Source: a virus (Duplodnaviria; Heunggongvirae; Uroviricota; Caudoviricetes). From it: a stretch of 17,345 bases of DNA. The notes under the pieces were generated by a model. That model was not told the DNA's origin. It saw only the letters and a list, made by a program, of their open reading frames with translations, and did no database searches. This document shows, piece after piece, positions 704 to 17,345 of the stretch. Every line of letters begins with the position of its first letter. Positions within the stretch are counted from its first letter, which is position 1. Location: IMG/VR virus record IMGVR_UViG_2713897073_000004; one strand, given 5' to 3'. Position numbers and translations under genes: made by a program.

Positions 704-1255
704 TTACGCTTCCTGCTCTTTCTTGATACGTTGCACCGTCTGTGTGCTGACACTGAAATCTTTTGCTACGCTCCGAATTGATCCACCATTCGCGAGAGCG
801 GCAGCAATTCCTGCTCGATCAATTGCTTTTCCATTACCACGTTTTGCTATACGCCCAGCGGCCTTAGCTGCCGCGATCCCTTCACGTTGACGCTCAAGCA
901 TCATTTCACGCTCCATTTGTGCCACTGCTGCAAGCACTGTGAGCATCATATTCCCTGCGGGAGAGTTCTTCCCTGTCTTAAAGTCTTCTTTATGGAAATG
1001 CACAGACACGCCGCGCTCTGTTAATTGCTCAACCGTTGCCAGAAGGTCGGCTGTATTACGACAAAGGCGATCAATACTATGGACGTGTAACACGTCACCC
1101 TCCCGCACATAGTTCATCATTGCCTCAAACTGTGGGCGCTGAGTGTTCTTGCCTGACGCTTTATCTTCAAAGACTTTATCAAGAGTTACTCCAGCTAATT
1201 GACGGTCTGTGTTTTGTTGCACAGTCGATACCCTAATGTATCCAATATTAGCCAT
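704..1255 (-). CDS. serine recombinase, resolvase/invertase family
   Basis: 185-codon minus-strand ORF. Probable start is the second ATG (1255, AAGGA about 8 nt upstream), giving MANIGYIRVSTVQQNTDRQ. N-terminal YIRVST motif with the nucleophilic serine, SIDRLCRN, AVAQMEREMMLERQREG core, and a C-terminal HTH (SIRSVAKDFSVSTQTVQRI). An alternative start at 1261 adds two residues. Confidence 0.88.
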   Translation of the reverse strand: MANIGYIRVSTVQQNTDRQLAGVTLDKVFEDKASGKNTQRPQFEAMMNYVREGDVLHVHSIDRLCRNTADLLATVEQLTERGVSVHFHKEDFKTGKNSPAGNMMLTVLAAVAQMEREMMLERQREGIAAAKAAGRIAKRGNGKAIDRAGIAAALANGGSIRSVAKDFSVSTQTVQRIKKEQEA

Positions 1256-1754
1256 TTTCATTTTCCTTCTGTGTTGATTTGTGTGTAGTGATTATTGATC
1301 GTGTTGATTAGGTGTGTAAAGGACTTTTTTCACTACGAAATTCGAAGGTTTTTAGTGTGGTGATTTAGCCTGCTTTATCACTACACGTCTTGCATGAGAA
1401 TCATGTAGTTACGTTTTGGTAAAATTAGCAAGCTATTAAATAGTGTGTTTATTTTGAAAAAATAATTTTTTGTTGCATTAAAGAAAACTTGTTCGACAAA
1501 TAATAGATTGATTTTTAATCAACAATTTCTGATAGTGCTCTGTAAGCCGCATTACATAAGGCTTTGCGAAAGTGATGTAAAAGTGAAGAAAGCTAACATT
1601 GCACTTTTTAAGCTACTTTTCATTGAATTTTTACGTAGAAATTACACAGGGATTAATCATCAATTAATCTTGAATTTAAGCCTGTTTTTTTAATTTTTGA
1701 TAGCAAGAAACACTTTTAGAAGATCATTGCACAGATGTTATGTGATAAATGGAT

Positions 1755-1878
1755 GTAACGATGGGTTACATTCAGCTATCTGAAATACTCTCTGTAAGAA
1801 ATTTGGTAGTAACGATATTACACATCGGTAGTAACGATACGTTACATCGGCAGATGATTGGTTGTAACGAAAGGTTAC
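1755..1878. repeat. cluster of four GTAAC-N5-GTTAC palindromic sites; candidate iterons or recombinase/regulator binding sites
   Basis: GTAACGATGGGTTAC (1755-1769), GTAACGATATTACAC (1809-1823, degenerate right half), GTAACGATACGTTAC (1831-1845, perfect), GTAACGAAAGGTTAC (1864-1878, perfect). Sites 2 and 3 sit inside a tandem 22-23-bp repeat GGTAGTAACGATA..TTACACATCGG. Centre-to-centre spacings are about 54, 22 and 33 bp. Confidence 0.6.
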
Positions 1879-2628
1879 ACAATAAGACTAACATCTATAA
1901 TACTAATAATAAAACTAACTATTAAACTATATAATATAATTCTTTTTATTTTTATAAGAATAATTATAGGGATACCCGTTAGGAAGTCTTCGAATATCCC
2001 TTAATCTATTGGCATTCGCCAGAACCTTGCACAAGTTAGAGTGTTAGTCGTTAGACTGCTTGTCATAACACATAGTTTTTGTTTGTTGATGTTAGTTAGT
2101 AGATCTATGTTCGCTAATACCGCTCACAACGAATATGTAATCTACTATGTGCAATAACCTTGTGTGCTACGCATTAGCGATGTTAGCACATAGACACAGA
2201 CAACAACCAACAACAAACAAAAAAGAATGGTTTTAGTAGTTGAAGGTTAAATAAGATTCTACCGCTTAAATCAAGCCGTAGGCGAGCTAAACGTATATAA
2301 GGTAGGGAAACACCTTAGCGGTAATAGATTAGCTCGTTATAGAGCTTCTGAGGAGCTTTACAGGTATTTTATAAGATGTCTGAAATCATAGTTTATCTAT
2401 CCACCATCTTTCCATCACCTGATAAATCAAAAATAAGCCCCTTAAATAAACCTCTGACGAGATAAACAGCCATTAGATAAGGCAATGTATTGCTTTTATC
2501 AAAACTTCGTTAGAACGCGTTTTAGAGCGTTTTAGACAATAATGAAGAATAGCACTACACAGGAGAGCACGAATTGCTAAGAAAAAATGTAAGTACATGA
2601 AAAAGATCAGATTTTTTATGAAAAGGTA

Positions 2629-2657
2629 TTGACAAACGTCTCTTTCTGTGCAATAAT
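2629..2657 (+). promoter_or_regulatory. sigma70-type promoter for the small-gene operon
   Basis: TTGACA (2629-2634), 17-nt spacer, AATAAT (2652-2657); consensus -35, 5/6 -10, optimal spacing; about 125 nt upstream of the first operon gene. Confidence 0.5.
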
Positions 2658-2781
2658 AGGTATTAGAGGGACAGGAATAGATTCTTATCCTCTAAATAAT
2701 TAAACCAATGCACCGCACTTTGAAGCCCAAGGCTTGCAAGGTGTTTTTTCTTTTAACCAAATAGAATAAGGAGGCTAATTA

Positions 2782-2958
2782 ATGAAATATTTTACTCCAC
2801 AGGATGTAGTAGAAGCCTGGAAACGTGGTGAGATCAACCGCTTTAAAGTAAGGATGTATAGAAACACCGCTCGCCGTTGTGGTTATCCAGAGCGTGAAAA
2901 ATGTTTTGACGATGCACTGAAAATTATTGATGAACTGCGTAAAGCTGAGAAAGAATAA
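2782..2958 (+). CDS. hypothetical small protein (58 aa), first gene of the AT-rich operon
   Basis: ATG 2782 preceded by AAGGAGG (2768-2774, 7-nt spacer); MKYFTPQDVVEAWKRGEINRFKVRMYRNTARRCGYPEREKCFDDALKIIDELRKAEKE, stop TAA 2956-2958. Not in the ORF track (under 60 aa). The minus-strand track ORF 2779-3012 is its antisense shadow. Confidence 0.6.
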   Translation: MKYFTPQDVVEAWKRGEINRFKVRMYRNTARRCGYPEREKCFDDALKIIDELRKAEKE

Positions 2959-2980
2959 TAGACAAGAGAAGGAGAAAACT

Positions 2981-3148
2981 ATGAGCGAAACCAAGAAACC
3001 AATTCCACGCACTTACCTACACGTTGACCCTGAAATTTTCAAGATTTTATTTTCTGAAGCCAAGAAAAGGCAAGTTATGGTCAGTGATTTGATGTTAGAA
3101 ATCATTACTGAAGCAGCAGAGAACATCAAACAAAAAAAGGGTAAGTGA
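2981..3148 (+). CDS. ribbon-helix-helix (CopG/Arc/MetJ-like) DNA-binding protein, 55 aa
   Basis: Start at the internal ATG 2981 of track ORF 2927-3148, with GAAGGAGA 5-6 nt upstream. MSETKKPIPRTYLHVDPEIFKILFSEAKKRQVMVSDLMLEIITEAAENIKQKKGK shows a beta-strand (RTYLHVD), helix A, short turn, helix B pattern typical of RHH proteins. Fold call is from pattern only. Confidence 0.5.
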   Translation: MSETKKPIPRTYLHVDPEIFKILFSEAKKRQVMVSDLMLEIITEAAENIKQKKGK

Positions 3149-3201
3149 TCCTCATTCACTTTAGTAGCGCATTAAGCGTGATTTATAAGGAGATAATTCT
3201 A

Positions 3202-3882
3202 ATGTCTAAAATTAAATTGATTCGTGAAAAACACCAGTATGTTGATAAACAAACAGGAGAAATTAAAGACCGAACTTTGAATATACCGCATTACTTTTGT
3301 GAGATTGAATTCATCTACTCCTCAAATATTGAGGATGGAAGAGCGAAGTTTAGTGCAGAAATGCAAAAATTATATTGCTATGTTTCAGATTGGGAGAAAT
3401 CAGGGGGGATATGTTTTGAAACACAAACGAAGTTAAGTAAGGTTTGTGGCTGTAGCCGTAAGACAGTTAATGAATTGATTGGTCTTATGATTAAAATCGG
3501 TCTTTTAGAAGAGGTCGGAGAACGAATCCCAAAACGTCCATTAAAATTACGTGCGCTACCTCTCACAGATGCACATATTACTCCCCCTAGAGAGTCATCA
3601 CTACCTGATCCTTCTGAGAAAGAAGACGAATCTAATGAAATATTGAATGTTTCCGAAATCATCCTTGAAGAAGAAACACAGGAATCAGCGTTCCCTGAGC
3701 GGCCCGAAATTTTTACTTGGCTTCTTTCCCTTGATAAGAAGAAACCACCGCACGAAGAAACAGAAGATTTTGTAAAACGTGTATTAGATTCAAAGAATAT
3801 CTATCTTGAGAAACAGGCTTTTCACGATCTGATAATATCTCTAAGAGAAAAAAGTGAAATATACGATTCGATACCCTTCTAG
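3202..3882 (+). CDS. winged-helix DNA-binding protein, HTH_36-like (replication-initiator/regulator type) with acidic C-terminal region
   Basis: Start at MSKIKLIRE (ATG 3202, AAGGAG 9 nt upstream); the track ORF starts earlier at 3145 with no RBS. KLYCYVSDWEKSGGICFETQTKLSKVCGCSRKTVNELIGLMIKIGLLEEV matches the HTH_36 pattern seen in phage/plasmid replication-initiation proteins. C-terminal half is E/D/P-rich. Confidence 0.55.
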   Translation: MSKIKLIREKHQYVDKQTGEIKDRTLNIPHYFCEIEFIYSSNIEDGRAKFSAEMQKLYCYVSDWEKSGGICFETQTKLSKVCGCSRKTVNELIGLMIKIGLLEEVGERIPKRPLKLRALPLTDAHITPPRESSLPDPSEKEDESNEILNVSEIILEEETQESAFPERPEIFTWLLSLDKKKPPHEETEDFVKRVLDSKNIYLEKQAFHDLIISLREKSEIYDSIPF

Positions 3883-3894
3883 GAGAATAAATAA

Positions 3895-4164
3895 ATGACT
3901 TATAACATCACTATAGGAAACAAAACTATTGAAATAACTGAAAGCGGATACAACATTTTAAAAGCTATTTTGGAAATAGAGTTTTCACCACCGACAGTGG
4001 TTAGCTTTTGCAGCTTAGGTTGCTACAGCACCCAACATGTGAACAATTGGTTAAGCCATTTTACATCGTTCGGTGTGCTGGATTATGAAGGGATTAACAG
4101 CACTACATTTCGTCTTTTGAAATTAAACAAAGATTTTGAATTGTTTATCACAAACAATCAATAA
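3895..4164 (+). CDS. hypothetical protein (89 aa)
   Basis: ATG 3895 with AGGAGA 8 nt upstream; 13 nt after the preceding stop; same strand and tight spacing as neighbours. Confidence 0.5.
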   Translation: MTYNITIGNKTIEITESGYNILKAILEIEFSPPTVVSFCSLGCYSTQHVNNWLSHFTSFGVLDYEGINSTTFRLLKLNKDFELFITNNQ

Positions 4165-4260
4165 CAACAGATCGGGCAATACATATGGCAAATGCATTTA
4201 TGGCGATATTCATCGTAACTATGGCATTCAGTTTTTATAATCCACATAAAAAGAGGGAAA

Positions 4261-4644
4261 ATGGGAAGAAAGAAAAAGAACAACTTAAAACGTATTGAAA
4301 AAAACAGTAATTTCAATTCAACAAGACAACGTCCACCGACACACACCAATAACGAAATTCCAGGGGAAGAGATAATCTTTATTCTTGAAACAGAATCCCC
4401 TGAATTAAGTGATCAAGAATTAGAAATAATCCAGTCAATGCCAGGCGTTTACTTTCGCCCAAGAACAAGGAAACAAACTATCATTTCTGATGGCACTCTG
4501 AAACGTTGGCAGCTTTTAGGGTTTAGCTCCTATCATCATTTTTTGGGATTTAACGCTTTCAATAATTGTGTAGGTGGTGCATCGGAAGTCGATCTGATGG
4601 CTCATTTAGAAGATACATTAGCTTCTAACAAACGTTCTAACTAA
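4261..4644 (+). CDS. hypothetical protein (127 aa), basic N-terminus
   Basis: ATG 4261 preceded by AAAAAGAGGGAAA; N-terminus MGRKKKNNLKRIEKN is highly basic. Confidence 0.55.
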   Translation: MGRKKKNNLKRIEKNSNFNSTRQRPPTHTNNEIPGEEIIFILETESPELSDQELEIIQSMPGVYFRPRTRKQTIISDGTLKRWQLLGFSSYHHFLGFNAFNNCVGGASEVDLMAHLEDTLASNKRSN

Positions 4645-4702
4645 TAAAAATGATGGGCGTATGTATAAGCGCCCAATGAAAATATTCAATAAAGGAAAAA
4701 TA

Positions 4703-4933
4703 ATGATTAACTATCAACTATTAGAAACAACATTTTTTAAAGAAGCAAAACAACTTGCAGAAGTGTTTATTTCACTGGCTGAACGAGCAAAAGAAGAAAA
4801 TGATTTTGCCTTGCTTGATGATGTGCTGGATGACATTGCAACCTATCGTATACCGCTACAGATTGCACTAAACAAGGCTAAACAGATTCAGCAAGAGATG
4901 GAATCAGCAGATCAAGGAGAGATTGCACAATGA
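4703..4933 (+). CDS. hypothetical helical protein (76 aa)
   Basis: Start taken at internal ATG 4703 (MINYQLLETTFF...), preceded by AAAGGAAAAA; the track ORF begins at 4661 with no RBS. Stop overlaps the next start (ATGA). Confidence 0.5.
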   Translation: MINYQLLETTFFKEAKQLAEVFISLAERAKEENDFALLDDVLDDIATYRIPLQIALNKAKQIQQEMESADQGEIAQ

Positions 4934-5241
4934 CAGACAACATTCTGGAAGTTATGGACACTCTTTCGGATCGGATGATCACCCTACAGACACGTATCAA
5001 TCAAGCCTATTCAGATTTATGCGATTACACGCTCTCTCAATGCGTAATTAGCTTAATGAAGGTGAATGTAAGCCTTGACGATTTTATCTCTCTGGTGAGC
5101 GATTTAGAGCAGCTATCTGAGGACGATGCCAAGATGTGCACTCAAACCATCACAGACACCGCCAGCACGTTAAAGGCTGCAAGTGAAGAGATTCAGCAAT
5201 TAGTAGATGATTTAGCAAAAAGTGCTATTTTCTCTAAATGA
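4930..5241 (+). CDS. hypothetical acidic helical protein (103 aa)
   Basis: ATG 4930 overlaps the upstream stop in ATGA (translational coupling); last gene of the AT-rich operon. Confidence 0.55.
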   Translation: MTDNILEVMDTLSDRMITLQTRINQAYSDLCDYTLSQCVISLMKVNVSLDDFISLVSDLEQLSEDDAKMCTQTITDTASTLKAASEEIQQLVDDLAKSAIFSK

Positions 5242-6205
5242 TAATGAAAATCATTTGCATTTATAATGATTTTGTTATATAATAATTTTAGGGGTAGATA
5301 AAAAGGTTTTGACTGGTGTTAATCCTTTTCCTGTCATAAATCCCTGCATATGGAAGGTGATAGCCTCAAGGGTTGAGTGGCATTAACCTCTAACAAATAT
5401 TACCTTCCATCTCTCAAGAAGTTTTAGAATAATCATAACTCCCTCTTTGATTGTTGATTGTTTCTACGTTGTGTTGATGAATGTTGTTAGGCATTGTGCT
5501 TAATTTTGATAAAAGCGGGTAGGTGTTATCTCCTTGCCCTTCTCGCTCTTATTTTTCATCTGTGCTTATCCTAAAGCTCCTTATTTTGTCCGAAAACATT
5601 AAAGAGCCTTACACTGATAGTTATATTTTATAACTATTTACTAACATCACTAAACTCATTATTTAATGACAGAAGTTAGTAACAGAATAATCTATTAAGT
5701 TGTTGTCAAAAACAATCATCTGCATAGCGTTAGCCGCAAGCAGAGAGAGTTTAACTAAGAATGGAAGTATTGATAAGTATACCAGTTTACAAAAAAGATT
5801 TTTTCTAAATTGCAAATTCTTTCCAAAGCGGTAGATTACTGTGGTGTAGTTAATCCCTATTAAAATTTAATCTGTGAGTAGATTGGAATAGTGATTCCTT
5901 AAAATCTGACTGGTGCATCCACACCATGAAAGATAGCGGTTTAGCCCACCGCAACCAGAATATCAGGTCTTAGTGATTCCAGTGGGGCAACTCCTAAGAG
6001 CCTTTCTTCTAAGATCTGATATTCACTCTTTAAGCATATCATCAAGTATATTTAAAAAGTGTATTTGCTGATATGTTTAATCCTCTTATAGTTTAACTTA
6101 TCAATTATGTAATTGCCCGCACGTTAAAGCCCCTTTGCTGGTCAGAATTAACCTCTTACGGCATTGGGGCTTTTTATTTGTCTGGCACTAACAGGAACGT
6201 TATTT

Positions 6206-6403
6206 ATGAAACAAGAAATGATTATCAGCAAAGACGGGGAAACGATGATTGTTAGTGATGAAAACCTCATTAAGGTTGCCGCACTGTTGGGAGTTACTCC
6301 TGAAAGTCTTCATTCTACCACTGCTCAATTATTTAAATCGGCTGATGCGGTTAGTCTTGCTGATGCCCTTAAATCTAAAATTAAACAACTGAAAGGAAAA
6401 TAA
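6206..6403 (+). CDS. hypothetical protein (65 aa), first gene of cargo operon
   Basis: Start taken at ATG 6206 (MKQEMIISKDGE...), with AGGAA about 9 nt upstream; the track start at 6164 lies inside a GC hairpin/T-run and lacks an RBS. Confidence 0.5.
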   Translation: MKQEMIISKDGETMIVSDENLIKVAALLGVTPESLHSTTAQLFKSADAVSLADALKSKIKQLKGK

Positions 6404-6407
6404 TCTT

Positions 6408-6791
6408 ATGGCTAACCCATATGGAAAATTAAAAGCAGTGAATGCGGATAATTCCCGTTCACGCTGTAAGGTAGTAGCTTACGCTGCTGATCCAGTGCTG
6501 CAAGATCGCCTCGTCAAACTGGCTTCACCTCTCACTGACGATCTTATTGTCGGGGCTTTGCTGAAAGCCGATGGCACCAAAGCAACAACCGCATCTGATA
6601 TTGCTCACGTAGTAGTTGAACCGGCTTATGAAGGACAGGAAAGCGTAGTGGTTGCACATCCTACTTTCGTTATTCTGGCTGAAGATGGGATTGAATTTAA
6701 CAGCATGGAAAAGGCAAGTGTTATTGCAAAACTGCAATCTCTCGGCTTTGTAATTGCTGGTTATGAAGAACTTGCGATCCCTACGACTTAA
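6408..6791 (+). CDS. hypothetical protein (127 aa)
   Basis: ATG 6408 with AAAGGAAAA upstream, 4 nt after the previous stop; codon usage is more balanced than in the AT-rich operon. Confidence 0.65.
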   Translation: MANPYGKLKAVNADNSRSRCKVVAYAADPVLQDRLVKLASPLTDDLIVGALLKADGTKATTASDIAHVVVEPAYEGQESVVVAHPTFVILAEDGIEFNSMEKASVIAKLQSLGFVIAGYEELAIPTT

Positions 6792-6805
6792 CAAGGAAAA
6801 TAATA

Positions 6806-7837
6806 ATGAATGATTTATCAACATATTTTGGCGTTAATACTGCGGTAGTAACTCCATTTGCTTATGAGAATGCACTTAATACCCTGATTACTAATCTCGA
6901 TCTGTTCGATGTGCAATATCATACAGAAAACAGCATTCTTCTTACCGACCTGATTGATCAGTTTGTGCAGGTAGCTGGGGAAACCTCGCCTTACACTCAA
7001 AGCAGCTGGAACGCCTCTAAACGTCAGGAATGGTCAAACAAACTTTTCCAGATGAAGCACGTCGGCAGTATTAACGCTGTTACTTCTCGTGACCTGGAAC
7101 AATACAGCCGCCAATATCCAAACCGTTCTGATGCTATGCTGGTAGCGGTTAATGATTTCTCTGAGGCTCATTACCGTTCACACGCAAACCGTGTTGAAGT
7201 GGATCTGATTACCGCGCTGCTGGGACTGAAAGTTGAATCTGAATATGCCGGACAAGGTGATCTCGACTTCCTCGACGGTCAGGCTAAAACCACGGTACCC
7301 GCTATCGACTTTGCATCGACTAGTGTTAACCCGTTCCTTGCTATTCGTAAAGCGGTGCGCTTACAGAGTGAAAAGCTGGGGTCTGGTCTTGCTGCAAAGC
7401 GAACTGGTGTAATTATCTTTGCTGCTGGCGCTGCTGCTGATGGTTTGTCATCTAACCCGCTGATCAGTGACATGGTGAAATATGCAGGTGATGCGAGTGC
7501 TACGGCCCTGTTTACCCGTATGGTTGATTCTAACCCAGCCTATGACTCTTTCCAGATTGGTGGGATCACTGTTATTGATGTGTCAATGTTTCCTGAGATT
7601 GTTGCTCACATCGGAGAGAACGGTTTCGCAATTGTTCCGGTAATGGATAAGTCGGCACAGTGTTACCAGCTTCATAGCGGCGTTGGTGTGCGTCATGCTG
7701 AGTTAGGTCAAGATGCCGTGTTACATCACCAATATCTAATCAAGGATGAATTCCAATTCCCATCTGTGGTTACTGAGACATCTTATCTGCCAGTAAACAA
7801 CATTCCGCAAGCTATCATCTTCGGATCTGCTGCGTAA
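6806..7837 (+). CDS. hypothetical protein (343 aa), no recognisable catalytic motif
   Basis: ATG 6806 with CAAGGAAAA upstream; long clean ORF 14 nt after the previous stop. No Walker, HUH or nuclease motif found by eye. Confidence 0.75.
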   Translation: MNDLSTYFGVNTAVVTPFAYENALNTLITNLDLFDVQYHTENSILLTDLIDQFVQVAGETSPYTQSSWNASKRQEWSNKLFQMKHVGSINAVTSRDLEQYSRQYPNRSDAMLVAVNDFSEAHYRSHANRVEVDLITALLGLKVESEYAGQGDLDFLDGQAKTTVPAIDFASTSVNPFLAIRKAVRLQSEKLGSGLAAKRTGVIIFAAGAAADGLSSNPLISDMVKYAGDASATALFTRMVDSNPAYDSFQIGGITVIDVSMFPEIVAHIGENGFAIVPVMDKSAQCYQLHSGVGVRHAELGQDAVLHHQYLIKDEFQFPSVVTETSYLPVNNIPQAIIFGSAA

Positions 7838-7977
7838 TAAAGCATTAATAGACGATTCCCCATAGGGGCAATAAGGTAAGGGATAATCATATAAGTAAAA
7901 TATGCGCTGTCTCTTGCCCTTATTTTTTTTCTACTGTCTACAGACCCAAATAAAAATATATATGTGAGAGAAAACCA

Positions 7978-8190
7978 ATGAACGCAGAAAATTCACAGGC
8001 ATTAATTCTTAAATCTGTAAAAGAACTGGCAGCTATTAGCGAGGAATCAGTTATAAACACATCGGCGCTTTGCCGCCTTTTAGAAATTGATGCAAATAAT
8101 GTGCGGCAGCGTGTGTTTCAGACTGGATGCAGCACTTTTGAAGCAATTGCATACTACTGTTCTAAAAACAATAACAAACAACAATTATAA
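7978..8190 (+). CDS. small putative HTH protein (70 aa)
   Basis: ATG 7978; segment NTSALCRLLEIDANNVRQRV looks like a helix-turn-helix; sits directly upstream of the 613-aa gene. Confidence 0.5.
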   Translation: MNAENSQALILKSVKELAAISEESVINTSALCRLLEIDANNVRQRVFQTGCSTFEAIAYYCSKNNNKQQL

Positions 8191-8208
8191 TGCAGGGAAA
8201 CTATTAGA

Positions 8209-10050
8209 ATGCTTGAAATTAATGCCGCACGTATCTCGAACGTTATAACATTTACGACCGACTCCAAAAGCTTACAGAAAGCTAAGAATGAAGTAGAAAA
8301 ACTTCGTAAACAAATGGCGGCGGTGAAAGATATAGAATTGCGTGTTAAGACACATAAACAATCAACCGCTAAAGCAAAAAAAGACGTAGACGATATTGCT
8401 AAAAAGCAAGCACAGGCAGATAAAGCCAATGCTAAAGCACAATTAGCCGCTCAACGTGTAGTTGCAAGAGAACAAAAAGCCCTGGCAGCACGGAAAGAGA
8501 AGGCTGAATTAAAGCTTTTAGACGTTGGAGCAAGCATTAGCGCATTGCACCGTCTTTCTGTAGCGGAACAATATAAAGCTATTGCACAGGCTAGAGAAAT
8601 TGCCCTCCAATATGAAAGAGGCGCTATTAGTCTGGCACGTATGAATAGCCAAATGAAACGCCTACAACAGCAACAACGTAAGATTAATGGCAATCGTAAC
8701 GCTCACGCTAAAGCCTATGCACCTGTTAAGGGTAGCGGGAGTATTGGCGGCGGTGCTGCGGCTGTTATGCTGGGCGGCTTAGGCGCTGGCGCTGCATATA
8801 TGGCTATGAGCAAAGCCTCTGAATTTGTTACTAACAGCTTTGCGAATGCTGAAACGCTGGGTGAATTGTATAGCCGTGCCAAGCTGGGCGGTGTAGACGT
8901 TAACCAGATGAACAATATTGAGCAATGGGCGTATAAAAACGGCGTTGATTCAATGATGGGCGAACAAGGTAAACGTAAGTATCTCGATCAGATGAAAGAT
9001 GTGCGTGAACGTGCAACCAAATCTTATGATGAAGCTGAATATGTAGTTGATAAGAAAACTGGTAAAGGAGAATGGAAGGGCGGCGATAGCGGCATCAATA
9101 CTTTAATGAATGAAGGATTCCTAACTAAAAAGGATCTAAAAGACTTTGCTGATAATCCGGCTGGTCTGGTTAGTAAAGCAGTTCAGGGAATGGTAGCTAA
9201 AGGCTATTCAGATGCACAAATCGGTAGTCGTCTGGAAGATCTGGCTGATGATTTGATGCTCACCTCTAAATACTGGACACGCTCCGCTAAAGAAGTGGAA
9301 CAATCAGCACGAGAACAACGAGAATCAGGGCGCTGGGTAACACAGGCACAACAGGAAAGCGTTATTAAATTCCGTGAACTGAATAATGCACTTAGTGGGC
9401 TTTCTGACTCACAAGGGATCGCCTTTGTTGATGGCTTTATGAAATCTCTTGATCCGAAAGTGATTGAAGAGTTTAAAAAGAGCATGGTTGCAATGCTGCC
9501 AATGTTTACCAAATTAGGCGAGGCTGTAGGTGGTCTGCTTAATGCGATCATGAAAACTATCAACTGGCTGATGAAAAACGACGAGAAGACGGCAGCTATT
9601 CAGAAGAATTTAGGTGATGCACCGCCACTATCTAACGAAGGAATGAAGCAGAATCTTTCTAATCTCACTCCTGATCAATATAAAGGCGCTGGCACCGGAA
9701 CAATTAAGCCAGATAACAGCAATTCCCTGGTTAACACTATTAAAAGCTGGTTTATGCCAGAAGAAACGGTAGGTGGGGCACAGGCTGTAAATCAATACAG
9801 TCTCGAAGGACAAAACATTGCAAATCTGAAACAGAGTGCAGCACAACAAGCTTTCAAGGCTCCTTCTTACACCTTTGCACCTGTTATTAACTTCAATCCA
9901 GAATTACAAGTAAATGCAGAAGTGCCGCTAACTATCGAATCAGACACCGGACGATTGAGCGAATTTATCGACTTCAAATCAAAGGCATCTTCCGCTGAGT
10001 TTAGCAAGCTATTAACGCTTGGTGTTATGTCAGGCGGGTCAACCTATTAA
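8209..10050 (+). CDS. large hypothetical protein (613 aa): N-terminal K/A/Q-rich coiled coil, glycine-zipper hydrophobic segment, large C-terminal domain
   Basis: ATG 8209 with AGGGAAA upstream. Residues about 20-165 are K/A/Q/E-rich heptad-like sequence; residues about 175-201 are GSGSIGGGAAAVMLGGLGAGAAYMAMS (nt about 8731-8811), a Gly/Ala-rich membrane-type segment; the remaining roughly 400 aa are mixed. Composition recalls tape-measure or pilot/ejection proteins, but no homology is established. Confidence 0.8.
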   Translation: MLEINAARISNVITFTTDSKSLQKAKNEVEKLRKQMAAVKDIELRVKTHKQSTAKAKKDVDDIAKKQAQADKANAKAQLAAQRVVAREQKALAARKEKAELKLLDVGASISALHRLSVAEQYKAIAQAREIALQYERGAISLARMNSQMKRLQQQQRKINGNRNAHAKAYAPVKGSGSIGGGAAAVMLGGLGAGAAYMAMSKASEFVTNSFANAETLGELYSRAKLGGVDVNQMNNIEQWAYKNGVDSMMGEQGKRKYLDQMKDVRERATKSYDEAEYVVDKKTGKGEWKGGDSGINTLMNEGFLTKKDLKDFADNPAGLVSKAVQGMVAKGYSDAQIGSRLEDLADDLMLTSKYWTRSAKEVEQSAREQRESGRWVTQAQQESVIKFRELNNALSGLSDSQGIAFVDGFMKSLDPKVIEEFKKSMVAMLPMFTKLGEAVGGLLNAIMKTINWLMKNDEKTAAIQKNLGDAPPLSNEGMKQNLSNLTPDQYKGAGTGTIKPDNSNSLVNTIKSWFMPEETVGGAQAVNQYSLEGQNIANLKQSAAQQAFKAPSYTFAPVINFNPELQVNAEVPLTIESDTGRLSEFIDFKSKASSAEFSKLLTLGVMSGGSTY

Positions 10051-10097
10051 TCATCACTGTGGGGCTGTTTAGCCCCCTTAAATAAGGATTACAAATT

Positions 10098-10775
10098 ATG
10101 GCAATGGGTCCGTTAACCATTGGTCGCCCGACTGAGGCGAAAATCAACAGCACAAGCAACGATAGCAACGGTAGAACAACTAAAGGGGGTAACGGCTTTG
10201 CGATCATTACCTCTAATCTCGGCAGTGGTGCAAATGCTGCTTACAATGACTACCAGGCATTATCATTTGATAGCGTGGAATCGACGAGAGTTAGCAGAAA
10301 TGCAGACGTTACAAGCTATGCTGTCGAATCAGGATCAGAAGTTAGTGATCATGTTCAAATACGGAATAACAAGTTCACATTACAAGGGCGTATCTCTGAA
10401 ACCGTATTGAAGCTCAATCCTGATATGATTAAGAATGCTGGAATTAACGGCAATCGACGTATGCTTATGCTTGAATACCTAAATCAGTTGATGGACAGTC
10501 GCCAACCTTTCCTACTTGTCACTGAGTTAAAAAATTATGACAACGTTGTGTTAGTTGGCATGTCTTACGCAGAAGAAGCAAGCGAAAGCCTATTGTTTAC
10601 TCTTGATTTTGAGCAAATCCGTCTTGTCTCTAAAGCAACTACAAGCGCAATTGCGGTAAAAACAGCACCAAATAAATCTGTAGGAGGCCAGGTTAAAATG
10701 CAGGTAAATACAACAGAACAGAAAAATCAAAAAAGCCCAGGGCAAGACGTTGTAACGCCAGTATTTAAACAATAG
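10098..10775 (+). CDS. hypothetical protein (225 aa), S/T/N/G-rich N-terminus
   Basis: ATG 10098 with AAGGA upstream; last gene of the cargo operon; the overlapping alternate-frame track ORF 10120-10410 is rejected. Confidence 0.7.
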   Translation: MAMGPLTIGRPTEAKINSTSNDSNGRTTKGGNGFAIITSNLGSGANAAYNDYQALSFDSVESTRVSRNADVTSYAVESGSEVSDHVQIRNNKFTLQGRISETVLKLNPDMIKNAGINGNRRMLMLEYLNQLMDSRQPFLLVTELKNYDNVVLVGMSYAEEASESLLFTLDFEQIRLVSKATTSAIAVKTAPNKSVGGQVKMQVNTTEQKNQKSPGQDVVTPVFKQ

Positions 10776-10816
10776 CCTTAAACGCCTATGAAACGCTCTG
10801 TAACGAGATAATCATA

Positions 10817-10848
10817 AAAGAGGCATCAGCCTATATTGAAGCCTCTTT
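10817..10848. terminator. hairpin between convergent genes; candidate bidirectional terminator
   Basis: AAAGAGGC (10817-10824), 16-nt loop, GCCTCTTT (10841-10848), between the cargo operon end (10775) and the integrase stop (10856); A/T-rich on both flanks. The loop is large, so stability is uncertain. Confidence 0.35.
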
Positions 10849-10855
10849 ATTACGT

Positions 10856-12133
10856 CTATAGCGTTGTTTTACGCCTTAAATTTGATTTTTTATTGATTGA
10901 TAAGCCTTTCTCTATTTCAGGATAGCGTAAAAGCTCAATATATTTTTTAAGCTCTACTGGAGAAGCTGCATTTTTGCTATATGTGCGGAATGTTTCTGTA
11001 TTGCCGCGTGTATGGCCCAGGAGAAGGGCGATCCTGTCTTCTGGAATTTGATTTCGATCAAGAAGCTGTGCTACTCCGTGTCTCAGAGAATGAAACACTT
11101 TCCTTTCTGTTCCCTTTTCCCCTAAAGCCTTTCGTTTAGCTCTTGTAAATCGTTGTGTATGCCACGTAGAGCGTTTACCGTCAGCACGCTCTGTAATGCT
11201 GGCGTGATAGAACAAAAAGCCATTGTGAGGCTTTTCACGAAGAGATAACACCAATGGAGTGATAAGGCTATGCACAGGCACAAGACGTGCCGCAGCTTTC
11301 GTTTTTCCCTGTGTGATTTCAAAACACAGCACACCTTCGATCTCTTTCACATCGTCTATTGTGAGACTTGCTATCTCATTGATCCGCATCCCTGTATATA
11401 AACCGATAAGACATAAAGCCGTCATTTCTTTGTTTTCTGCTGAATTACCGGAAAATACTTGCAACACCTGCAATAGCTCTTTGTTAGAAAATGCCTCGTA
11501 GCTCTCTCTACTTTGTGCCACATCAAGCCTATGCCCTCGCCAGGGGGAGAGCGCCCTTTCTGGCGCATCGTGGTAACGTGATGAAGCTAATTCCCATAGC
11601 TGGGCCATTGGGCTGATATAATTTGCAATTGATTGTTGTGAAAGAGTTTTTTGCATGTGTTCAATCCAGCCTGTAACAGTGGTGCGGCTTACATCTTGCA
11701 ATGCAATATCAGGCTTTTTACGGTAGGAGAGAAACATCTCTACCGCTTTTCTTGCCTTAGCTAAAGTGGCTGGCTTCTTCTTCGTGCTGTTAATTGTCAG
11801 GTAGATTTCAAGAATTTTAAGCAATGACGGACACGAAGACGCTGTATCTTGCATTCTGGTAGCTGTTTTGGCGTATTTAGCCTTACTGCGTAACAGTTCC
11901 AGCGTGTTTTCTATTGTGCTGTTTACAGGGGCAACACTCTCCCGTAAGCAATGGTATTCATCTGCAATCTGATCACGCTTTCTACGTGCAACACGAAGAT
12001 TACTTGTGTGCAGACTTCTGACAAACGTCCTTTTTCCTTCAAAAAAGGGCTGCATATACACAGGCAGCGTGATCCTTAAATAGTAGTTACCGTAAGAATC
12101 ACAGATTAAGTATTGGTTAGGCTTGTATCTCAT
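10856..12133 (-). CDS. tyrosine site-specific recombinase/integrase with DUF6538-like N-terminal domain
   Basis: Catalytic signature of tyrosine recombinases: TGMRINEIASL (Arg), VFHSLRHGVAQLL (HxxR), LLGHTRGNTETFRTYS (His...Tyr). N-terminus YLICDSYGNYYLRITLP...GKRTFVRSLHTSN fits the YYFRRR-type arm domain. Start placed at the internal ATG 12133 (GGAG 5 nt upstream); the track start at 12190 has no RBS. Confidence 0.85.
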   Translation of the reverse strand: MRYKPNQYLICDSYGNYYLRITLPVYMQPFFEGKRTFVRSLHTSNLRVARRKRDQIADEYHCLRESVAPVNSTIENTLELLRSKAKYAKTATRMQDTASSCPSLLKILEIYLTINSTKKKPATLAKARKAVEMFLSYRKKPDIALQDVSRTTVTGWIEHMQKTLSQQSIANYISPMAQLWELASSRYHDAPERALSPWRGHRLDVAQSRESYEAFSNKELLQVLQVFSGNSAENKEMTALCLIGLYTGMRINEIASLTIDDVKEIEGVLCFEITQGKTKAAARLVPVHSLITPLVLSLREKPHNGFLFYHASITERADGKRSTWHTQRFTRAKRKALGEKGTERKVFHSLRHGVAQLLDRNQIPEDRIALLLGHTRGNTETFRTYSKNAASPVELKKYIELLRYPEIEKGLSINKKSNLRRKTTL

Positions 12134-12310
12134 AAAATCTCCGGCTAAAGTGTCGGAGCGTTTGTAATGTGAAAATTGATTGTGACGCATAGAAAATGAT
12201 TATTTTTCTATAAGATTCAATCAATTAGTAATGGTCGTAGTGATGGCATTAACACGAGATTAATCGAGTGTTTTACTCCTATTATCGGCACCATTCAAAC
12301 ATCTCCCCAA

Positions 12311-12458: not shown

Positions 12459-13673
12459 GTGAAACTCAATGCCCGTCAAATAGACACAGCCAAGCCAAAA
12501 GAGAAGGCTTACAAGCTGGCCGATGGTGGCGGTTTGTATCTCTTGGTAAAACCTAATGGAGGTAAATACTGGCGACTTAAATATCGTGTAGCAGGTAAAG
12601 AGAAGCTATTGGCACTAGGTGTGTATCCTGAGGTTACTCTAGCCGATGCTCGGGCAAAACGTGAAGATGCGAAAAGAGGTATCGCTGGTGGTATCGATCC
12701 GATGGAAGCGAAACGAGAGGAAAAGATTGCCCGGGAAACGCAGTTAAACAACACCTTCAAAGATATTGCCCTTGAGTGGCACAGCAGCAAATTAAAAAAA
12801 TGGTCTGCTGGTTATGCTTCAGACATCCTCGAAGCCTTCAACAAAGATGTGTTCCCTTACATTGGCAAAAAACCAATCGCCGAAATCAAACCACTTGAAC
12901 TTCTGAATGTGCTGCGGCGCATCGAGGGGCGCGGTGCGACAGAAAAAGCCAAAAAAGTGAGGCAGCGGTGCGGGGAAGTTTTCCGCTATGCAATAGTCAC
13001 TGGTCGCGCAGAGTATAACCCTGCACCAGACCTTACTAGCGCGATGCAAGGCCATGAATCTAATCATTACCCTTTCCTTACGACCAAAGAATTACCTGAT
13101 TTTTTCAAGGCATTATCCAGTTACTCAGGAAGCGCATTGGTTGTTATGGCGGCTCGCCTACTGATTATCACCGGCTTGCGAACTGGCGAACTACGTGGCG
13201 CATTATGGGATGAAATTGATTTCAACAAGGCTATATGGGAGATACCCGCTTCACGTATGAAAATGCGGCGGCCTCATATTGTGCCATTGTCTGAGCAGGC
13301 TCTTTCGCTTATTGGGAAGATTAGAGAAATAACAGGCAATTACCCTCTTATGTTTCCCGGGCGCAATGATCCAAGGAAAACAATGAGTGAGGCCAGCATA
13401 AACCAAGTGTTTAAGCGCATTGGCTACGCTGGACGTGTAACTGGTCATGGGTTCCGACACACTATGAGCACGATTTTGCATGAGCAGGGCTATAACACCG
13501 CGTGGATAGAAACGCAGCTCGCTCACGTTGATAAGAACTCAATTCGTGGCACATACAACCATGCGCAATATCTGGATGGACGGCGGGAGATGCTTCAATG
13601 GTATGCCGACTATATGGATTCTCTCGAGCATGGCGGAAATGTGGTGCATATGGTGTTTGAAAAACACGCATGA
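12459..13673 (+). CDS. int: P4-family tyrosine integrase
   Basis: GTG start 12459 with GGAGG 9 nt upstream. N-terminal arm-binding domain typical of P4-type integrases (AKPKEKAYKLADGGGLYLLVKPNGGKYWRLKYR), catalytic Arg (ITGLRTGELR), HxxR (GHGFRHTMST), and C-terminal LAHVDKNSIRGTYNHAQYLDGRREMLQWYADYMD with the catalytic Tyr. Confidence 0.92.
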   Translation: MKLNARQIDTAKPKEKAYKLADGGGLYLLVKPNGGKYWRLKYRVAGKEKLLALGVYPEVTLADARAKREDAKRGIAGGIDPMEAKREEKIARETQLNNTFKDIALEWHSSKLKKWSAGYASDILEAFNKDVFPYIGKKPIAEIKPLELLNVLRRIEGRGATEKAKKVRQRCGEVFRYAIVTGRAEYNPAPDLTSAMQGHESNHYPFLTTKELPDFFKALSSYSGSALVVMAARLLIITGLRTGELRGALWDEIDFNKAIWEIPASRMKMRRPHIVPLSEQALSLIGKIREITGNYPLMFPGRNDPRKTMSEASINQVFKRIGYAGRVTGHGFRHTMSTILHEQGYNTAWIETQLAHVDKNSIRGTYNHAQYLDGRREMLQWYADYMDSLEHGGNVVHMVFEKHA

Positions 13674-13980
13674 AACAACTGGACAAGTATACAGAGGTTT
13701 ACTAAAGTATAGGGGAGTAGATTGATAAAAACTCACAGAGGATTGCTATTTAACAGTTAGCCTTGGAGAAGGGCAATCGCTCTTTTATAAACGAAGGTGT
13801 ATTGAGCCTTCTACGCTGCTGAAAAGCGGAATGTTCTTTAACAGGCTTTGGCGCTGACAAAGCGCAATTGTTCTTTAAAACTACTGGATGTCACGCCTAA
13901 TAGCGTGATCCTGCCGAAATGCAGGGTAGCTCTACCCTTGTGGAGCAAACAAACCAAAACAATCTGACTATCTTTTATAA

Positions 13981-14013
13981 AAGACCGCAATATGTTTTTC
14001 ATATTGTGGTCTT
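13981..14013. promoter_or_regulatory. inverted repeat upstream of alpA; candidate operator
   Basis: AAGACCGCAATATG (13981-13994), TTTTT, CATATTGTGGTCTT (14000-14013): 14-bp arms, 13/14 complementary, about 90 bp upstream of the alpA start. A second palindrome GGGTAG-CT-CTACCC lies at 13924-13937. Confidence 0.4.
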
Positions 14014-14100
14014 TGGCGTATTCGACATTTGACGCAAATAAAACTCTCGCCATTCGTTGCAGGAGGGGGTTATTGCGTCATTAGTACAGGATATTAATAA

Positions 14101-14304
14101 ATGGCTAATTACAATTCATTAATTCGTCTCTCTGAAGTTCAAAGGCGAACTGGTTATAGCAAAGCATGGATTTATCGTCTTATTAGTCAGGGGAGGTTCC
14201 CTAAACAGGTAAAAATTGGAAGTCGGGCAATTGCTTTTGTTGAGTCTGAAATAGATGAATGGATTGAGAAGTGTATATTAGAATCTAGAGACGAGGTGGC
14301 CTGA
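14101..14304 (+). CDS. alpA: AlpA/Vis-family transcriptional regulator (excisionase-like HTH)
   Basis: 67 aa; LIRLSEVQRRTGYSKAWIYRLISQGRFPKQVKIGSRAIAFVESEIDEWI is the classic AlpA signature; positioned just downstream of a P4-type int, as in P4-like islands. Confidence 0.85.
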   Translation: MANYNSLIRLSEVQRRTGYSKAWIYRLISQGRFPKQVKIGSRAIAFVESEIDEWIEKCILESRDEVA

Positions 14305-14735
14305 TGGAAAAGAAAAACCGCCCATTACAGGCGGCTAATTCAGATATTCGCGTATCTGATGTTACGCCCCTGACAAAATCCCTTCAAGCACCAAAGCGCA
14401 CGCCGAAAAAGCATCGTGCCCGAGTCTATATGCTGCGTACTGGTATAGAGGGATGGACAGAAAATGACATTCTTCGCTACTGCCGTCTGTCTTCTGGTCG
14501 TAACTATGCAACAGAGTTAGAACGCCAGCTTGGAATCACTCTGGAGCGTATCGACGAAAAGAATCCTGATGGTATCGGAACACACCTTCGCTACCGTTTC
14601 TCCTGCCGTGGTGATGTTCTGAAAGTGATCACTCATGTTAACCATCTTGCGAACATAAATGATCACAACGGACTTTCTCAGCAGGAAATTGCCGACATTC
14701 TGAAACTCTACCCGGACGCGTTTAACGCCGCCTAA
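14304..14735 (+). CDS. hypothetical protein (143 aa)
   Basis: ATG 14304 overlaps the alpA stop (TGATG), indicating coupling; basic N-terminus (PKRTPKKHRAR); no motif recognised. Confidence 0.65.
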   Translation: MEKKNRPLQAANSDIRVSDVTPLTKSLQAPKRTPKKHRARVYMLRTGIEGWTENDILRYCRLSSGRNYATELERQLGITLERIDEKNPDGIGTHLRYRFSCRGDVLKVITHVNHLANINDHNGLSQQEIADILKLYPDAFNAA

Positions 14736-14747
14736 CGGAGACTAAAA

Positions 14748-15581
14748 ATGAACATCGAAAAAAGCAGATTAATTTCTGAGGCCGCCCCTCATCTGAACGC
14801 CTCTCTGGGCACAATTAACGGTAATGAATTTGCCGCAATTGTCCCGGTTATTTCTGGTCATATAGGCGGGCGTGAAACCAATATTGTTAGCGCAAAAGCG
14901 TTACACAAAGCGTTGGGCGTGGGAAAAGACTTCTCTACATGGATCACTGATCGCATCTCTGAATATGACTTCACCATTGGGCACGATTACTCAGTCCATA
15001 AAACAATTTCCCCAAATTTGGGGAAAAGCCCGAATGACGCGGCTTACAGCAAGATTAAGCAGTCTGGCAGACCCGGCAAAGACTATCTGTTAAGTGTCGG
15101 AATGGCGAAAGAACTGGCAATGATCGAACGCAATGATCAGGGTCGCGCTATCCGCCGTTATTTCATCCAGTGCGAGAAAGAATTACAGCGTAGCGTGCCT
15201 GAAATCGCCGCCCGCTATCGTCGCCAGCTAAAAGCCCGTATCAGTGCCGCAAACAACTTCAAGCCAATGTGCGATGCGCTGAATATGGCCCGTGCCGAGA
15301 TGGGGAAAACGACGCAGCAACACCACTACACAAACGAGAGCAATATGATTTCTCGTATCGTTCTTGGTGGGCTAACTGCTAAGCAGTGGGCGCGGATAAA
15401 TGGCTATTCTGGCGAACCTCGCGACCATATGAACGCAGAACAGCTTGAGCACCTCTCATATCTCGAAAGCACCAATATCACGTTAATTGATATGGGCATG
15501 GAATATGAGCAGCGCAAAGGAGAACTCACCCGCCTGTCGCAACGCTGGCTCGCCAAGCGTCTGGAGGCGGTCCATGTTTAA
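14748..15581 (+). CDS. putative antirepressor, AntA/AntB- or KilAC-like (277 aa)
   Basis: ATG 14748 with ACGGAG upstream. Segments FSTWITDRISEYDFTIGHDY and GKDYLLSVGMAKELAMIERNDQGRAIRRYFIQCE resemble phage antirepressor domains. Family assignment is from remembered motifs, not a search. Confidence 0.6.
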   Translation: MNIEKSRLISEAAPHLNASLGTINGNEFAAIVPVISGHIGGRETNIVSAKALHKALGVGKDFSTWITDRISEYDFTIGHDYSVHKTISPNLGKSPNDAAYSKIKQSGRPGKDYLLSVGMAKELAMIERNDQGRAIRRYFIQCEKELQRSVPEIAARYRRQLKARISAANNFKPMCDALNMARAEMGKTTQQHHYTNESNMISRIVLGGLTAKQWARINGYSGEPRDHMNAEQLEHLSYLESTNITLIDMGMEYEQRKGELTRLSQRWLAKRLEAVHV

Positions 15582-15756
15582 GCCGACAGGAACACCACAA
15601 CCTCAAAAACGCTACAAAGATGCCCACGGAGCACTCGTTACTGTCGAAAGCGTGTCTCACAACCGAGTGACGTTTTATCGCGACGGGTATCAATCGCCAT
15701 GCGTACAACCGCTGGCACGTTTCATGAAGGAGTTCGCGGAGGTTAACAAATGCTAA
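15574..15756 (+). CDS. hypothetical small protein (60 aa)
   Basis: Start taken at internal ATG 15574 (MFKPTGTPQPQKRYKDAHGALVTVESV...), which overlaps the AntA-like stop by 8 nt. The track ORF 15487-15756 extends upstream inside the preceding gene and is rejected as an N-terminal extension. Confidence 0.5.
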   Translation: MFKPTGTPQPQKRYKDAHGALVTVESVSHNRVTFYRDGYQSPCVQPLARFMKEFAEVNKC

Positions 15757-16382: not shown

Positions 16383-16393
16383 CGTAACCTGCT
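16276..16393 (+). ncRNA. candidate structured leader or antisense-type regulatory RNA (C4/CI-like immunity RNA or attenuator)
   Basis: GGCTTC-TTCG-GAAGC hairpin (16293-16306); TGGTGG (16276-16281) can pair with CCACCA (16352-16357), while CTACCACC (16349-16356) can alternatively pair with GGTGGTAG (16375-16382); AGCCGGTTACGC (16323-16334) is 11/12 complementary to GCGTAACCTGCT (16382-16393), which lies 8 nt upstream of the GGAGG of the next gene. Confidence 0.35.
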
Positions 16394-16412
16394 ATCTGAA
16401 GGAGGCTGCCAC

Positions 16413-16607
16413 ATGCTGGCTACTACCCCTACCCAAAAAACGCAATTTATCTGGATTATCGCCGCAGTTCGCCGCGATTGCCCGACAATTACCGCCAAAA
16501 TTCATCATATTGCTGCCGAGTCTGAACGCGATGCTCGCCGTTCTCTGGTGCGCGATCACGTCTGCTTTTTTGCTGGTCGTATCCGCATGGAGGTGGCACA
16601 TGATTAA
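16413..16607 (+). CDS. hypothetical small protein (64 aa)
   Basis: ATG 16413 with GGAGG 7 nt upstream; first gene after the structured leader. Confidence 0.6.
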   Translation: MLATTPTQKTQFIWIIAAVRRDCPTITAKIHHIAAESERDARRSLVRDHVCFFAGRIRMEVAHD

Positions 16608-17265: not shown

Positions 17266-17345
17266 CCAACATCCAGCTCATTGAAGCGCAATGTCGCATC
17301 GAACAGGTTCAGACTGTTTTAGGGTTCTGGCTTGAAGGGGCCAGC
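17262..17345 (+). CDS. hypothetical protein, 5' fragment (continues beyond window)
   Basis: ATG 17262 overlaps the upstream stop (ATGA); open to the window end (MTNIQLIEAQCRIEQVQTVLGFWLEGAS...). Confidence 0.5.
   Translation, partial: MTNIQLIEAQCRIEQVQTVLGFWLEGAS

Follow-up and report, generated by a model that had tools for sequence, protein, structure and literature searches.

The gene-free stretch at positions 5242-6205 (the gap) of a 17,345-nucleotide (nt) viral DNA (Caudoviricetes, IMG/VR record IMGVR_UViG_2713897073_000004; referred to at its full length as the window) is, in the reading that we favor with moderate confidence, the terminator-gated leader, or control region, of the late (capsid and tail-tip) operon of an island. 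This island is phage-like, occurs in Escherichia coli and its relatives and is apparently undescribed; we found no description of it or of the RNA in the literature. The reading rests on several directly observed properties: the anatomy of the gap, the stability and strand bias of its fold, covariation within its stems, a layout shared across genera and the absence of a coding signal. A preliminary description, made from the sequence alone, had listed a small RNA, the promoter and leader of a cargo operon, an origin or transfer site, and decayed genes as possible contents of the gap. The promoter and leader fit best, because a promoter matching the consensus at 10 of 12 positions is predicted at the 5′ end, a predicted terminator (T2) ends 27 nt before the operon start (ATG 6206) with no promoter-like site in between, and the operon has no promoter of its own. 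The operon itself turned out to be a capsid and tail-tip gene cluster rather than cargo.

As noted in that description (about 960 bp), no open reading frame (ORF) of at least 60 aa is present on either strand between 5242 and 6163, where the start-to-stop maximum is 50 aa; an ORF listed at 6164-6403 is a TTG-extended form of the 65-aa gene, whose RefSeq start is ATG 6206. Stop codons occur in all six frames (18-29 in each, over approximately 321 codons), and the longest stop-to-stop frame (67 codons) matches that of shuffled sequences (69.6 +/- 15). The lack of ORFs is therefore what is expected for non-coding DNA of the same composition, and it is notable solely against the gene-dense surroundings.

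The putative promoter (Table 1) directly follows the stop codon of the p103 gene, the last gene of the early operon, and consists of sigma-70-type hexamers separated by a distance within the usual 16-18 nt; transcription is predicted to start near A5290. Only two sites matching at least 10 of the 12 consensus positions were found on the + strand of region 2500-10900, namely the early promoter (2629-2657) and that of the gap (5238/5254-5283), and no others reaching at least 9/12 occur between 5283 and 10219. The −35 hexamer is invariant, and the −10 hexamer is retained in nine of ten E. coli alleles.

At the opposite end, the repeat AAAGCCCC / GGGGCTTT followed by a T-run, recognized earlier at about 6130-6180, corresponds to T2, whose T-run (TTTTTATTT) reaches 6179. 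T2 has the form of an intrinsic terminator, i.e. a G+C-rich hairpin followed by a U-run (UUUUUAUUU), and its predicted fold has an energy of -23.0 kcal/mol (z -4.35 relative to shuffled sequences). A candidate internal terminator (T1; -14.5 kcal/mol, z -2.83) would yield a short RNA of approximately 265 nt, counted from the predicted start, and the spot aligned to T1 in a divergent E. coli lineage (L021, 2788-2809) was scored as terminator-like by a scan. The octamer CGCTCTTA at about 5545, an exact match to lambda boxA, was rejected as a boxA element; it varies among alleles and is better explained as the 3′ arm of T1 plus its U-tract.

The RNA predicted to arise between these signals is far more stable than expected. 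For positions 5290-6178 (889 nt), the minimum free energy (MFE) of the + strand is -247.6 kcal/mol, compared with -193.9 +/- 6.5 kcal/mol for shuffled sequences (z -8.24; 0 of 20 shuffles as stable), whereas the complement gives -217.7 kcal/mol (z -3.05). Coding controls of the same length upstream (4350-5238; -204.3 kcal/mol, z -0.28) and downstream (6206-7094; -233.3 kcal/mol, z -1.86) show that the hairpins of the gap exceed chance. All three hairpins of the preliminary description were real and located where it had placed them: the inverted repeat ATGGAAGGT...ACCTTCCAT (about 5350-5400) spans 5350-5410, GGTG-CATCCA-CACC forms a stem of 5911-5915 with 5922-5926 around a loop at 5916-5921, and the third is T2. 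Two larger hairpins, at 5958-6024 and 6030-6080, were absent from its list.

Table 1. Features of the window; promoters, terminators, operators and RNA structures are predictions
Feature	Position	Strand	Details
Sigma-70-type promoter	5254-5283	+	-35 TTTGCA (5254-5259), 18-nt spacer, -10 TATAAT (5278-5283); 10/12
Palindrome-like element, candidate operator	5262-5279		TATAAT-GATTTT-GTTATA, within the promoter spacer
Untranslated structured transcript (leader RNA or non-coding RNA)	5290-6179	+	approximately 890 nt
5′-terminal hairpin	5290-5345	+	z -2.56
13-bp hairpin	5350-5362 with 5398-5410	+	ATGGAAGGTGATA / TATTACCTTCCAT; inner stem also present; z -4.36
Candidate internal terminator T1	5514-5556	+	hairpin AGCGGG...CUCGCU (5514-5547), then CUUAUUUUU; tentative
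Three-hairpin module	5904-6027	+	P1, P2 and P3
P1	5904-5907/5931-5934 and 5911-5915/5922-5926	+	loop CAUCCA
P2	5936-5940/5948-5952	+	
P3	5958-5973/6009-6024	+	16-bp stem; inner stem 5984-5988/6000-6004; loop AACUCCUAAGA (5989-5999); z -4.28 (5955-6027)
Imperfect 24-bp hairpin	6030-6080	+	-21.1 kcal/mol, z -9.47 (6028-6084)
Intrinsic terminator T2	6126-6179	+	AAAGCCCC (6126-6133), structured 32-nt loop, GGGGCUUU (6166-6173), U-tract to 6179
Palindrome, candidate second operator	6189-6202		TAAC-AGGAAC-GTTA, 10 nt past the U-tract; overlaps the ribosome-binding site of the 65-aa gene
Gated operon	6206-10775	+	65-aa gene, 127-aa gene (gpD position), capsid gene, 70-aa gene, tail genes
Terminator-like hairpin	about 7870-7930	+	eight-U run; right after the capsid gene, before the 70-aa, tape-measure-like and Dit-like genes
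Early promoter	2629-2657	+	TTGACA-17-AATAAT, 11/12, with TG
Early leader	2663-2695 and 2715-2744	+	hairpin (2663-2695); terminator (2715-2744) with UUUUUU to 2750; Shine-Dalgarno sequence, ATG 2782
Early operon			58-aa and 55-aa genes, helix-turn-helix (HTH)/replication-initiator-like protein (3202-3882), four small proteins, the last being p103 (4930-5241)
Gene-poor stretch	1262-2781		1.5 kb, no annotated gene
Resolvase	704-1261	-	
Tyrosine integrase	10856-12190	-	

In the 3′ half of the gap, entire stems have been exchanged among E. coli alleles while pairing and loops were retained. The exchanges include (i) the P1 stem GGUG/CACC, replaced by UGUUG/CAGCA or CGAUG/CAUUG below an unchanged CAUCCA loop, (ii) the stem GCGGU/ACCGC, replaced by GCGAU/AUCGC, (iii) the 16-bp stem GAAUAUCAGGUCUUAG/CUAAGAUCUGAUAUUC, which becomes GAAUAGAUAUUCCUGA/UCAGGAGUAUCUAUUC or AAUAACAGG.../...CCUGUUAUU under a conserved YUCCUAAG loop, and (iv) the T2 stem AAAGCCCC/GGGGCUUU, which becomes AAAUCCCCC/GGGGGAUUU; a compensatory T2 allele reads AAATCCCCC/GGGGGATTT. 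A covariance model of the module at 5904-6027 (R1; four helices, 30 pairs) recovered all E. coli alleles together with the divergent L021/L004 lineage, and reached no match in other genera. In the resulting alignment 98.8% of the cells are paired and both sides have changed in 15 of the 30 pairs, compared with 29-47% paired cells and at most two such pairs in controls with slid partners; the helices have 16 G·U cells on the + strand versus four unpaired ones. In an independent alignment of Cronobacter, Buttiauxella and Enterobacter, compensatory changes affect 13 of the 40 consensus pairs.

The 5′-terminal hairpin contains GGUKUUAGCUGGYGUUAAUCCUU, common to L021/L004, in which the outer stem of the 5350-5410 hairpin is GAAAGCGGGG/CCUCGCUUUC instead, with the inner CCUCAAGGG and UCUAAC retained (judged by eye). 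The hairpin at 6030-6080, whose non-Watson-Crick positions are by our reading mostly G·U on the + strand, is exchanged for a different hairpin in L021 and in the L003/L005/L018 allele. We also observed that 6064-6088, comprising the 3′ arm of this hairpin and the following AAUCCUCUUA, is repeated with 72% identity at 6134-6158, inside the T2 loop, and that both copies are able to pair with 6217-6235, where the coding sequence of the 65-aa gene begins; termination and translation could conceivably be coupled through such alternative pairings.

The same arrangement was found well beyond E. coli. Relatives of the capsid protein (41-56% identity) are encoded in Citrobacter, Buttiauxella, Kosakonia, Phytobacter, Scandinavium, Raoultella, Klebsiella, Cronobacter, Enterobacter and further E. 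coli lineages, and wherever the upstream sequence sufficed, an ORF-free gap of 380-960 nt was present at the same place, in most genera compared between the p103 and p65 (65-aa) protein families. Similarity of the gap DNA to the window is lost outside E. coli; the common layout comprises a promoter, 0.4-0.9 kb of ORF-free structured RNA, a terminator, a small ORF, a gene in the gpD position and a lambda gpE-like capsid gene. The bounding promoter and a canonical terminator at the T2 position were identified by scan in L006, L022 and L028, the promoter alone by scan in L021, and both by eye in the remaining relatives. Each relative has TTGACA/TTGACT-N17/18-TAnnAT at the same gap end (10-11/12 in the four scanned lineages), and the final terminator lies 35-90 nt upstream of the small ORF. 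For the gaps of ten relatives, z-scores of the + strand fold range from -3.7 to -10.1; in 10 of 11 lineages this strand folds more stably than its complement.

Six of ten lineages (L021, L006, L010, L022, L028 and L029) share a loop motif, YCCUAAG, always in the 3′ part of the gap, and in Enterobacter it lies within the loop of an additional terminator-like hairpin. In a k-mer search for universal motifs only TCCTAAG (6/10 lineages) stood out, by a composition-corrected estimate; AT-rich words were no more frequent than in shuffled sequences.

Both ends of the gap also carry a palindrome. The sequence [T/A]AAC-N6/7-GTTA occurs in the promoter spacer and again 8-12 nt past the final terminator (22 nt in L026) in 12 of 15 lineages by our own count, and the spacer length of the post-terminator palindrome equals that of the promoter palindrome of the same lineage. 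An exact TAAC-N4-8-GTTA is located in the promoter spacer of L020, L021, L004, L006, L009, L011, L028, L029 and L030, its right half partly coinciding with an extended −10 (TGnTA) in relatives; in L006 and L011 the two palindromes are the sole exact matches in approximately 13 kb. We read these paired palindromes as candidate operators of a dimeric DNA-binding protein.

From this arrangement we infer transcription of the gap, its termination and every step of release, as follows. Placed immediately behind the final early gene, the strong promoter would drive an untranslated + strand RNA forming a chain of stable hairpins. Transcription would halt at T2, and perhaps sooner, at T1; RNA polymerase halted at T2 would be kept from the capsid genes, which start shortly downstream and lack a promoter. 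Unless it was made termination-resistant, or a repressor or roadblock was removed, polymerase would be blocked in this way whether it had initiated at 5290 or come in from the early genes. Expression of the operon would then require the terminators to be overridden, by a processive antiterminator or by departure of a repressor from the promoter-spacer and post-terminator palindromes. The releasing factor might be supplied by a helper phage or by the island, and since the early operon also appears locked, it may be external to the island. The dense folding may keep Rho and nucleases away from the long untranslated RNA, and the conserved loops (YCCUAAG, CAUCCA) may be presented to a partner. If this reading is correct, the gap would be the master switch of the island's capsid genes and an RNA family missing from Rfam, and it would offer a handle on helper-phage sensing by an island with a capsid gene but no recognized portal or terminase.

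Several points weigh against the leader reading. The activities of the promoter and terminators are predictions. The 32-nt loop of T2 is atypically large (our terminator scan, limited to loops of at most 8 nt, missed T2 in the window for this reason), the U-tract of T2 is weak in one allele (ATTTATTAAATT), and T1 went undetected in the window by that scan. Within R1, covariation comes from only three to four independent alleles in an alignment fitted to the model. The first approximately 520 nt of the gap are nearly invariant among E. coli copies, reflecting recent common ancestry only; this is not in itself evidence of selection, because these copies are 97-100% identical over most of the island. 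Gating alone does not explain 0.4-0.9 kb of conserved structure, because a gate needs less than 100 nt, as in the early leader. Finally, searches with Pfam and PHROGs recognized no known antiterminator family (Q, N, AlpA or other) among the island proteins, and the structure model of the best antiterminator candidate, p127a, is too poor for a fold search (predicted local distance difference test score, pLDDT, 55.9), its N-terminal approximately 40 residues being shown as unstructured in this low-confidence model.

In the p127a family (4261-4644), the N-terminus is basic and conserved (MGRKKKNNLKRIEK...) and a further basic patch reads VYFRPRTRK; p127a is a candidate nucleic-acid-binding protein.

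A close known parallel is the lambda pR′-qut-6S RNA-tR′ region with Q. In both cases the last of the early or regulatory genes is directly followed by a strong promoter, whose non-coding transcript stops (in the island, by prediction) at an intrinsic terminator before promoter-less late genes; further terminators lie downstream, and among the late genes one in the gpD position precedes that of a gpE-like capsid protein. The island shows the order of promoter, terminator(s) and promoter-less late genes typical of Q-type late leaders. It differs in that the leader is 0.4-0.9 kb rather than about 0.2 kb and far more structured, no recognizable Q-family protein is encoded by the island or beside the promoter, palindromes occupy the promoter spacer and the region after the terminator, and the early operon is apparently gated likewise. 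Q-type leaders carry a Q-binding element and a −10-like pause signal within the first approximately 25 transcribed bases; by inspection, no consistent TAnnnT (sigma-dependent pause) element was seen past the start across the relatives.

In the immunity system of P4 (PLE leader, CI RNA) and with the C4 RNA of P1/P7 (RF01695), as proposed for the island, a mobile element is kept silent by premature termination in an untranslated, structured leader whose promoter appears constitutive. However, covariance models of this type (RF01695, clan CL00128), applied to 5100-6350 at E up to 10, gave no match, repeated antisense/target boxes were not found, and the gated genes are those for the capsid rather than for replication. 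The two 5′ hairpins (5290-5410) located before the terminators recall the cis-acting put RNAs of HK022, two specific stem-loops that bind RNA polymerase and make it termination-resistant, although this is a resemblance only; were the leader put-like, the terminators would be bypassed constitutively and control would necessarily lie at the promoter. Seen beside these systems, the gap RNA would be a variation on a known type of regulation, and the probability that it is something more is modest.

Among the other explanations, the best placed is a large non-coding RNA that stands alone and has its own function (for example, directed at a helper phage or at island proteins, or as a scaffold or decoy), and whose position before the capsid operon would be secondary. 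Such an RNA would account for the strong predicted promoter and terminator of its own, for a length and stability well beyond the needs of a terminator gate, and for loop motifs conserved above exchanged stems. It also has precedents: in phage ICP1 (approximately 800 nt, in an ORF-less gap of about 1 kb) and in the satellite PLE, the most abundant transcripts are non-coding and of unknown function (PMC7567579). We nevertheless consider it possible rather than probable. The terminator always lies directly before the promoter-less operon, sequence and length change rapidly between genera (380-960 nt, unalignable), unlike in RNAs with a fixed tertiary fold, and the complementarity of the leader to the island's 14 translation starts was no better than that of control 35-mers. 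As regards the small RNA proposed earlier, a structured RNA is indeed predicted, but it is not small, apart from the possible short form ending at T1.

Somewhat more doubtful still is the proposal that the gap encodes the first representative of a novel class of structured RNAs that are large (0.4-0.9 kb), specific to an undescribed family of capsid-encoding, satellite-like islands of Enterobacteriaceae and doing more than termination. For example, its loops could recruit a helper or island factor that makes polymerase terminator-resistant, or the RNA could target the helper in trans; if this were so, one antitermination signal would unlock all operons of the island. The gap RNA shares with GOLLD, ROOL, the ICP1 RNA of about 800 nt and the PLE IIR transcript a length of several hundred nt, the lack of ORFs, location on a phage-like element and predicted strong expression. 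It differs from these RNAs in matching neither the GOLLD/ROOL families nor any other in Rfam, in evolving fast and in consisting of simple hairpins; no sign of a conserved core of greater complexity was seen. A search of the gap against Rfam 15, at gathering scores and at E up to 10, gave nothing credible (including GOLLD, ROOL, OLE, HEARO, group I/II introns, riboswitches, RNase P and tmRNA); the top match, a nematode snoRNA, is at chance level (26.2 bits against a gathering score of 48), and a tRNA/tmRNA scan detected none. By these searches the gap RNA belongs to no described family.

A site acting at the level of DNA (pac/cos, a replication origin, a single-strand initiation site or a target of resolvase/integrase recombination) is improbable. 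The gap does lie just upstream of the head genes, as lambda cos does in textbook accounts, and the palindrome TAAC-N6-GTTA is present at both of its ends. L021/L004 also contain GGGGGCGACCT, with an apparent resemblance to lambda cosN (GGGCGGCGACCT). However, pairing in the gap is strand-biased, with G·U pairs on the + strand and the excess + strand stability seen in nearly all lineages, the gap has no phage similarity by blastn, and its orientation is identical in all copies, with no sign of inversion. The only tandem repeat in the gap is (TTGATTG)x2.3, and iterons are absent from it. A candidate iteron-type replication origin lies instead at 1755-1960, where palindromes GTAAC-N5-GTTAC (1755-1770, 1830-1846 and 1863-1879, with a partial copy at 1808-1823) are followed by a very AT-rich run (1890-1960); the HTH/initiator-like protein could be its partner. 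DNA-level roles, including the origin proposed earlier, are therefore disfavored, because double-stranded sites need no strand bias, iterons are lacking and the origin candidate is elsewhere.

An AT-rich spacer with chance hairpins is very improbable: the GC content of the gap (0.30-0.38) is similar to that of much of the island and AT-rich DNA often has promoter-like hexamers, but this explanation is already contradicted by the shuffle controls and the compensatory stem replacement, as well as by the layout conserved across genera. Least credible are the decayed genes that had been suggested, for which we found nothing positive beyond the general expectation that gene-free stretches in islands are often wreckage and the presence of one additional 70-aa gene upstream of the gap in L021/L004/L020, and against which stand the lack of translated similarity to ORFs in the corresponding regions of other genera (tblastn), of credible Pfam or PHROGs matches for the ten longest frames and of 3-base periodicity of substitutions (14/14/18 variable columns by codon position in ten E. 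coli alleles), the stops in all frames, the indels (5 of 29 divisible by three in these alleles) and the gap position maintained in about ten genera.

The early operon of the island has a leader of its own (Table 1), and that of the Citrobacter lineage L006 is alike (promoter at 5644-5673, 12-bp terminator at 5711-5739). With the terminator-like hairpin after the capsid gene, which lies in an intergenic piece whose fold as a whole has a z-score of only -0.97, four co-directional terminators are predicted in one gene array, and these point to antitermination as the control principle. Paralogy between the early leader (2655-2728) and the 3′ end of the late leader (6055-6132) was rejected, their local alignment score of 39 being equal to the shuffle mean (38.9). 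No 5′ motif common to the early and late leaders of the relatives was found; TCGAATCAC occurs once per locus.

The island is approximately 13 kb long and, by its annotated context, inserted at tRNA-Thr (thrW) beside proA. The 964 bases of the gap were found in 282 of 5426 complete E. coli genomes (about 5%), at 84-99.9% identity and nearly always on the chromosome; none of the listed records has an annotated feature under the match, RefSeq annotating nothing there. Carriers include E. coli O104:H4 strains such as C227-11, APEC O1:K1:H7 strains and many other enterobacteria. Among plasmids, blastn detected two E. coli records only.

The 343-aa protein of the late operon (6806-7837) has relatives that carry Pfam Phage_cap_E (lambda gpE-like major capsid protein), a 613-aa protein matches a tape-measure PHROG, and a Dit-like tail protein is encoded at 10098-10775. 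No portal, protease or terminase was recognized among the island proteins, and the capsid protein has no relative by tblastn among 50,697 phage records. Virulent phages of about 150 kb (Phapecoctavirus and Justusliebigvirus) encode proteins with 53% identity to the Dit-like protein, which hints at possible helpers, ESCO5, ESCO13 and nieznany being candidates from these genera. Together, these two results suggest a satellite-like lifestyle and possibly an undescribed phage-satellite family. A profile search of the 65-aa family against Protein Data Bank sequences matched only designed helical repeats, and p103, which adjoins the gap promoter, is acidic (isoelectric point 4.1).

The island is a mosaic, for the most part 97-100% identical between E. 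coli copies, with replaced patches. In L003 (9996-11624), L005 and L018, the 65-aa, gpD-position and capsid genes (compared with window 6000-7800) have been swapped for a DNA module that is about 45-55% identical, while the flanking leader and tail genes remain 96-99% identical. The junction of this swap falls within the 3′ portion of the leader, close to window position 6030. In the copy of strain 23CRST007 (L001 7986-9875, 99.9% identical), an ISVsa5 insertion splits the resolvase gene, which is intact in the window.

A second island follows in tandem (12459-17345) and encodes a P4-type integrase (12459-13673), AlpA (14101-14304), an AntA-domain protein (14748-15581) and an Ash-family protein (15750-16382). 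The only Rfam matches in the window, isrK (16131-16208, 59.9 bits) and C4 antisense RNA (16271-16359, 76.2 bits), are both located in this second island, where they lie within or overlap the Ash-family ORF.

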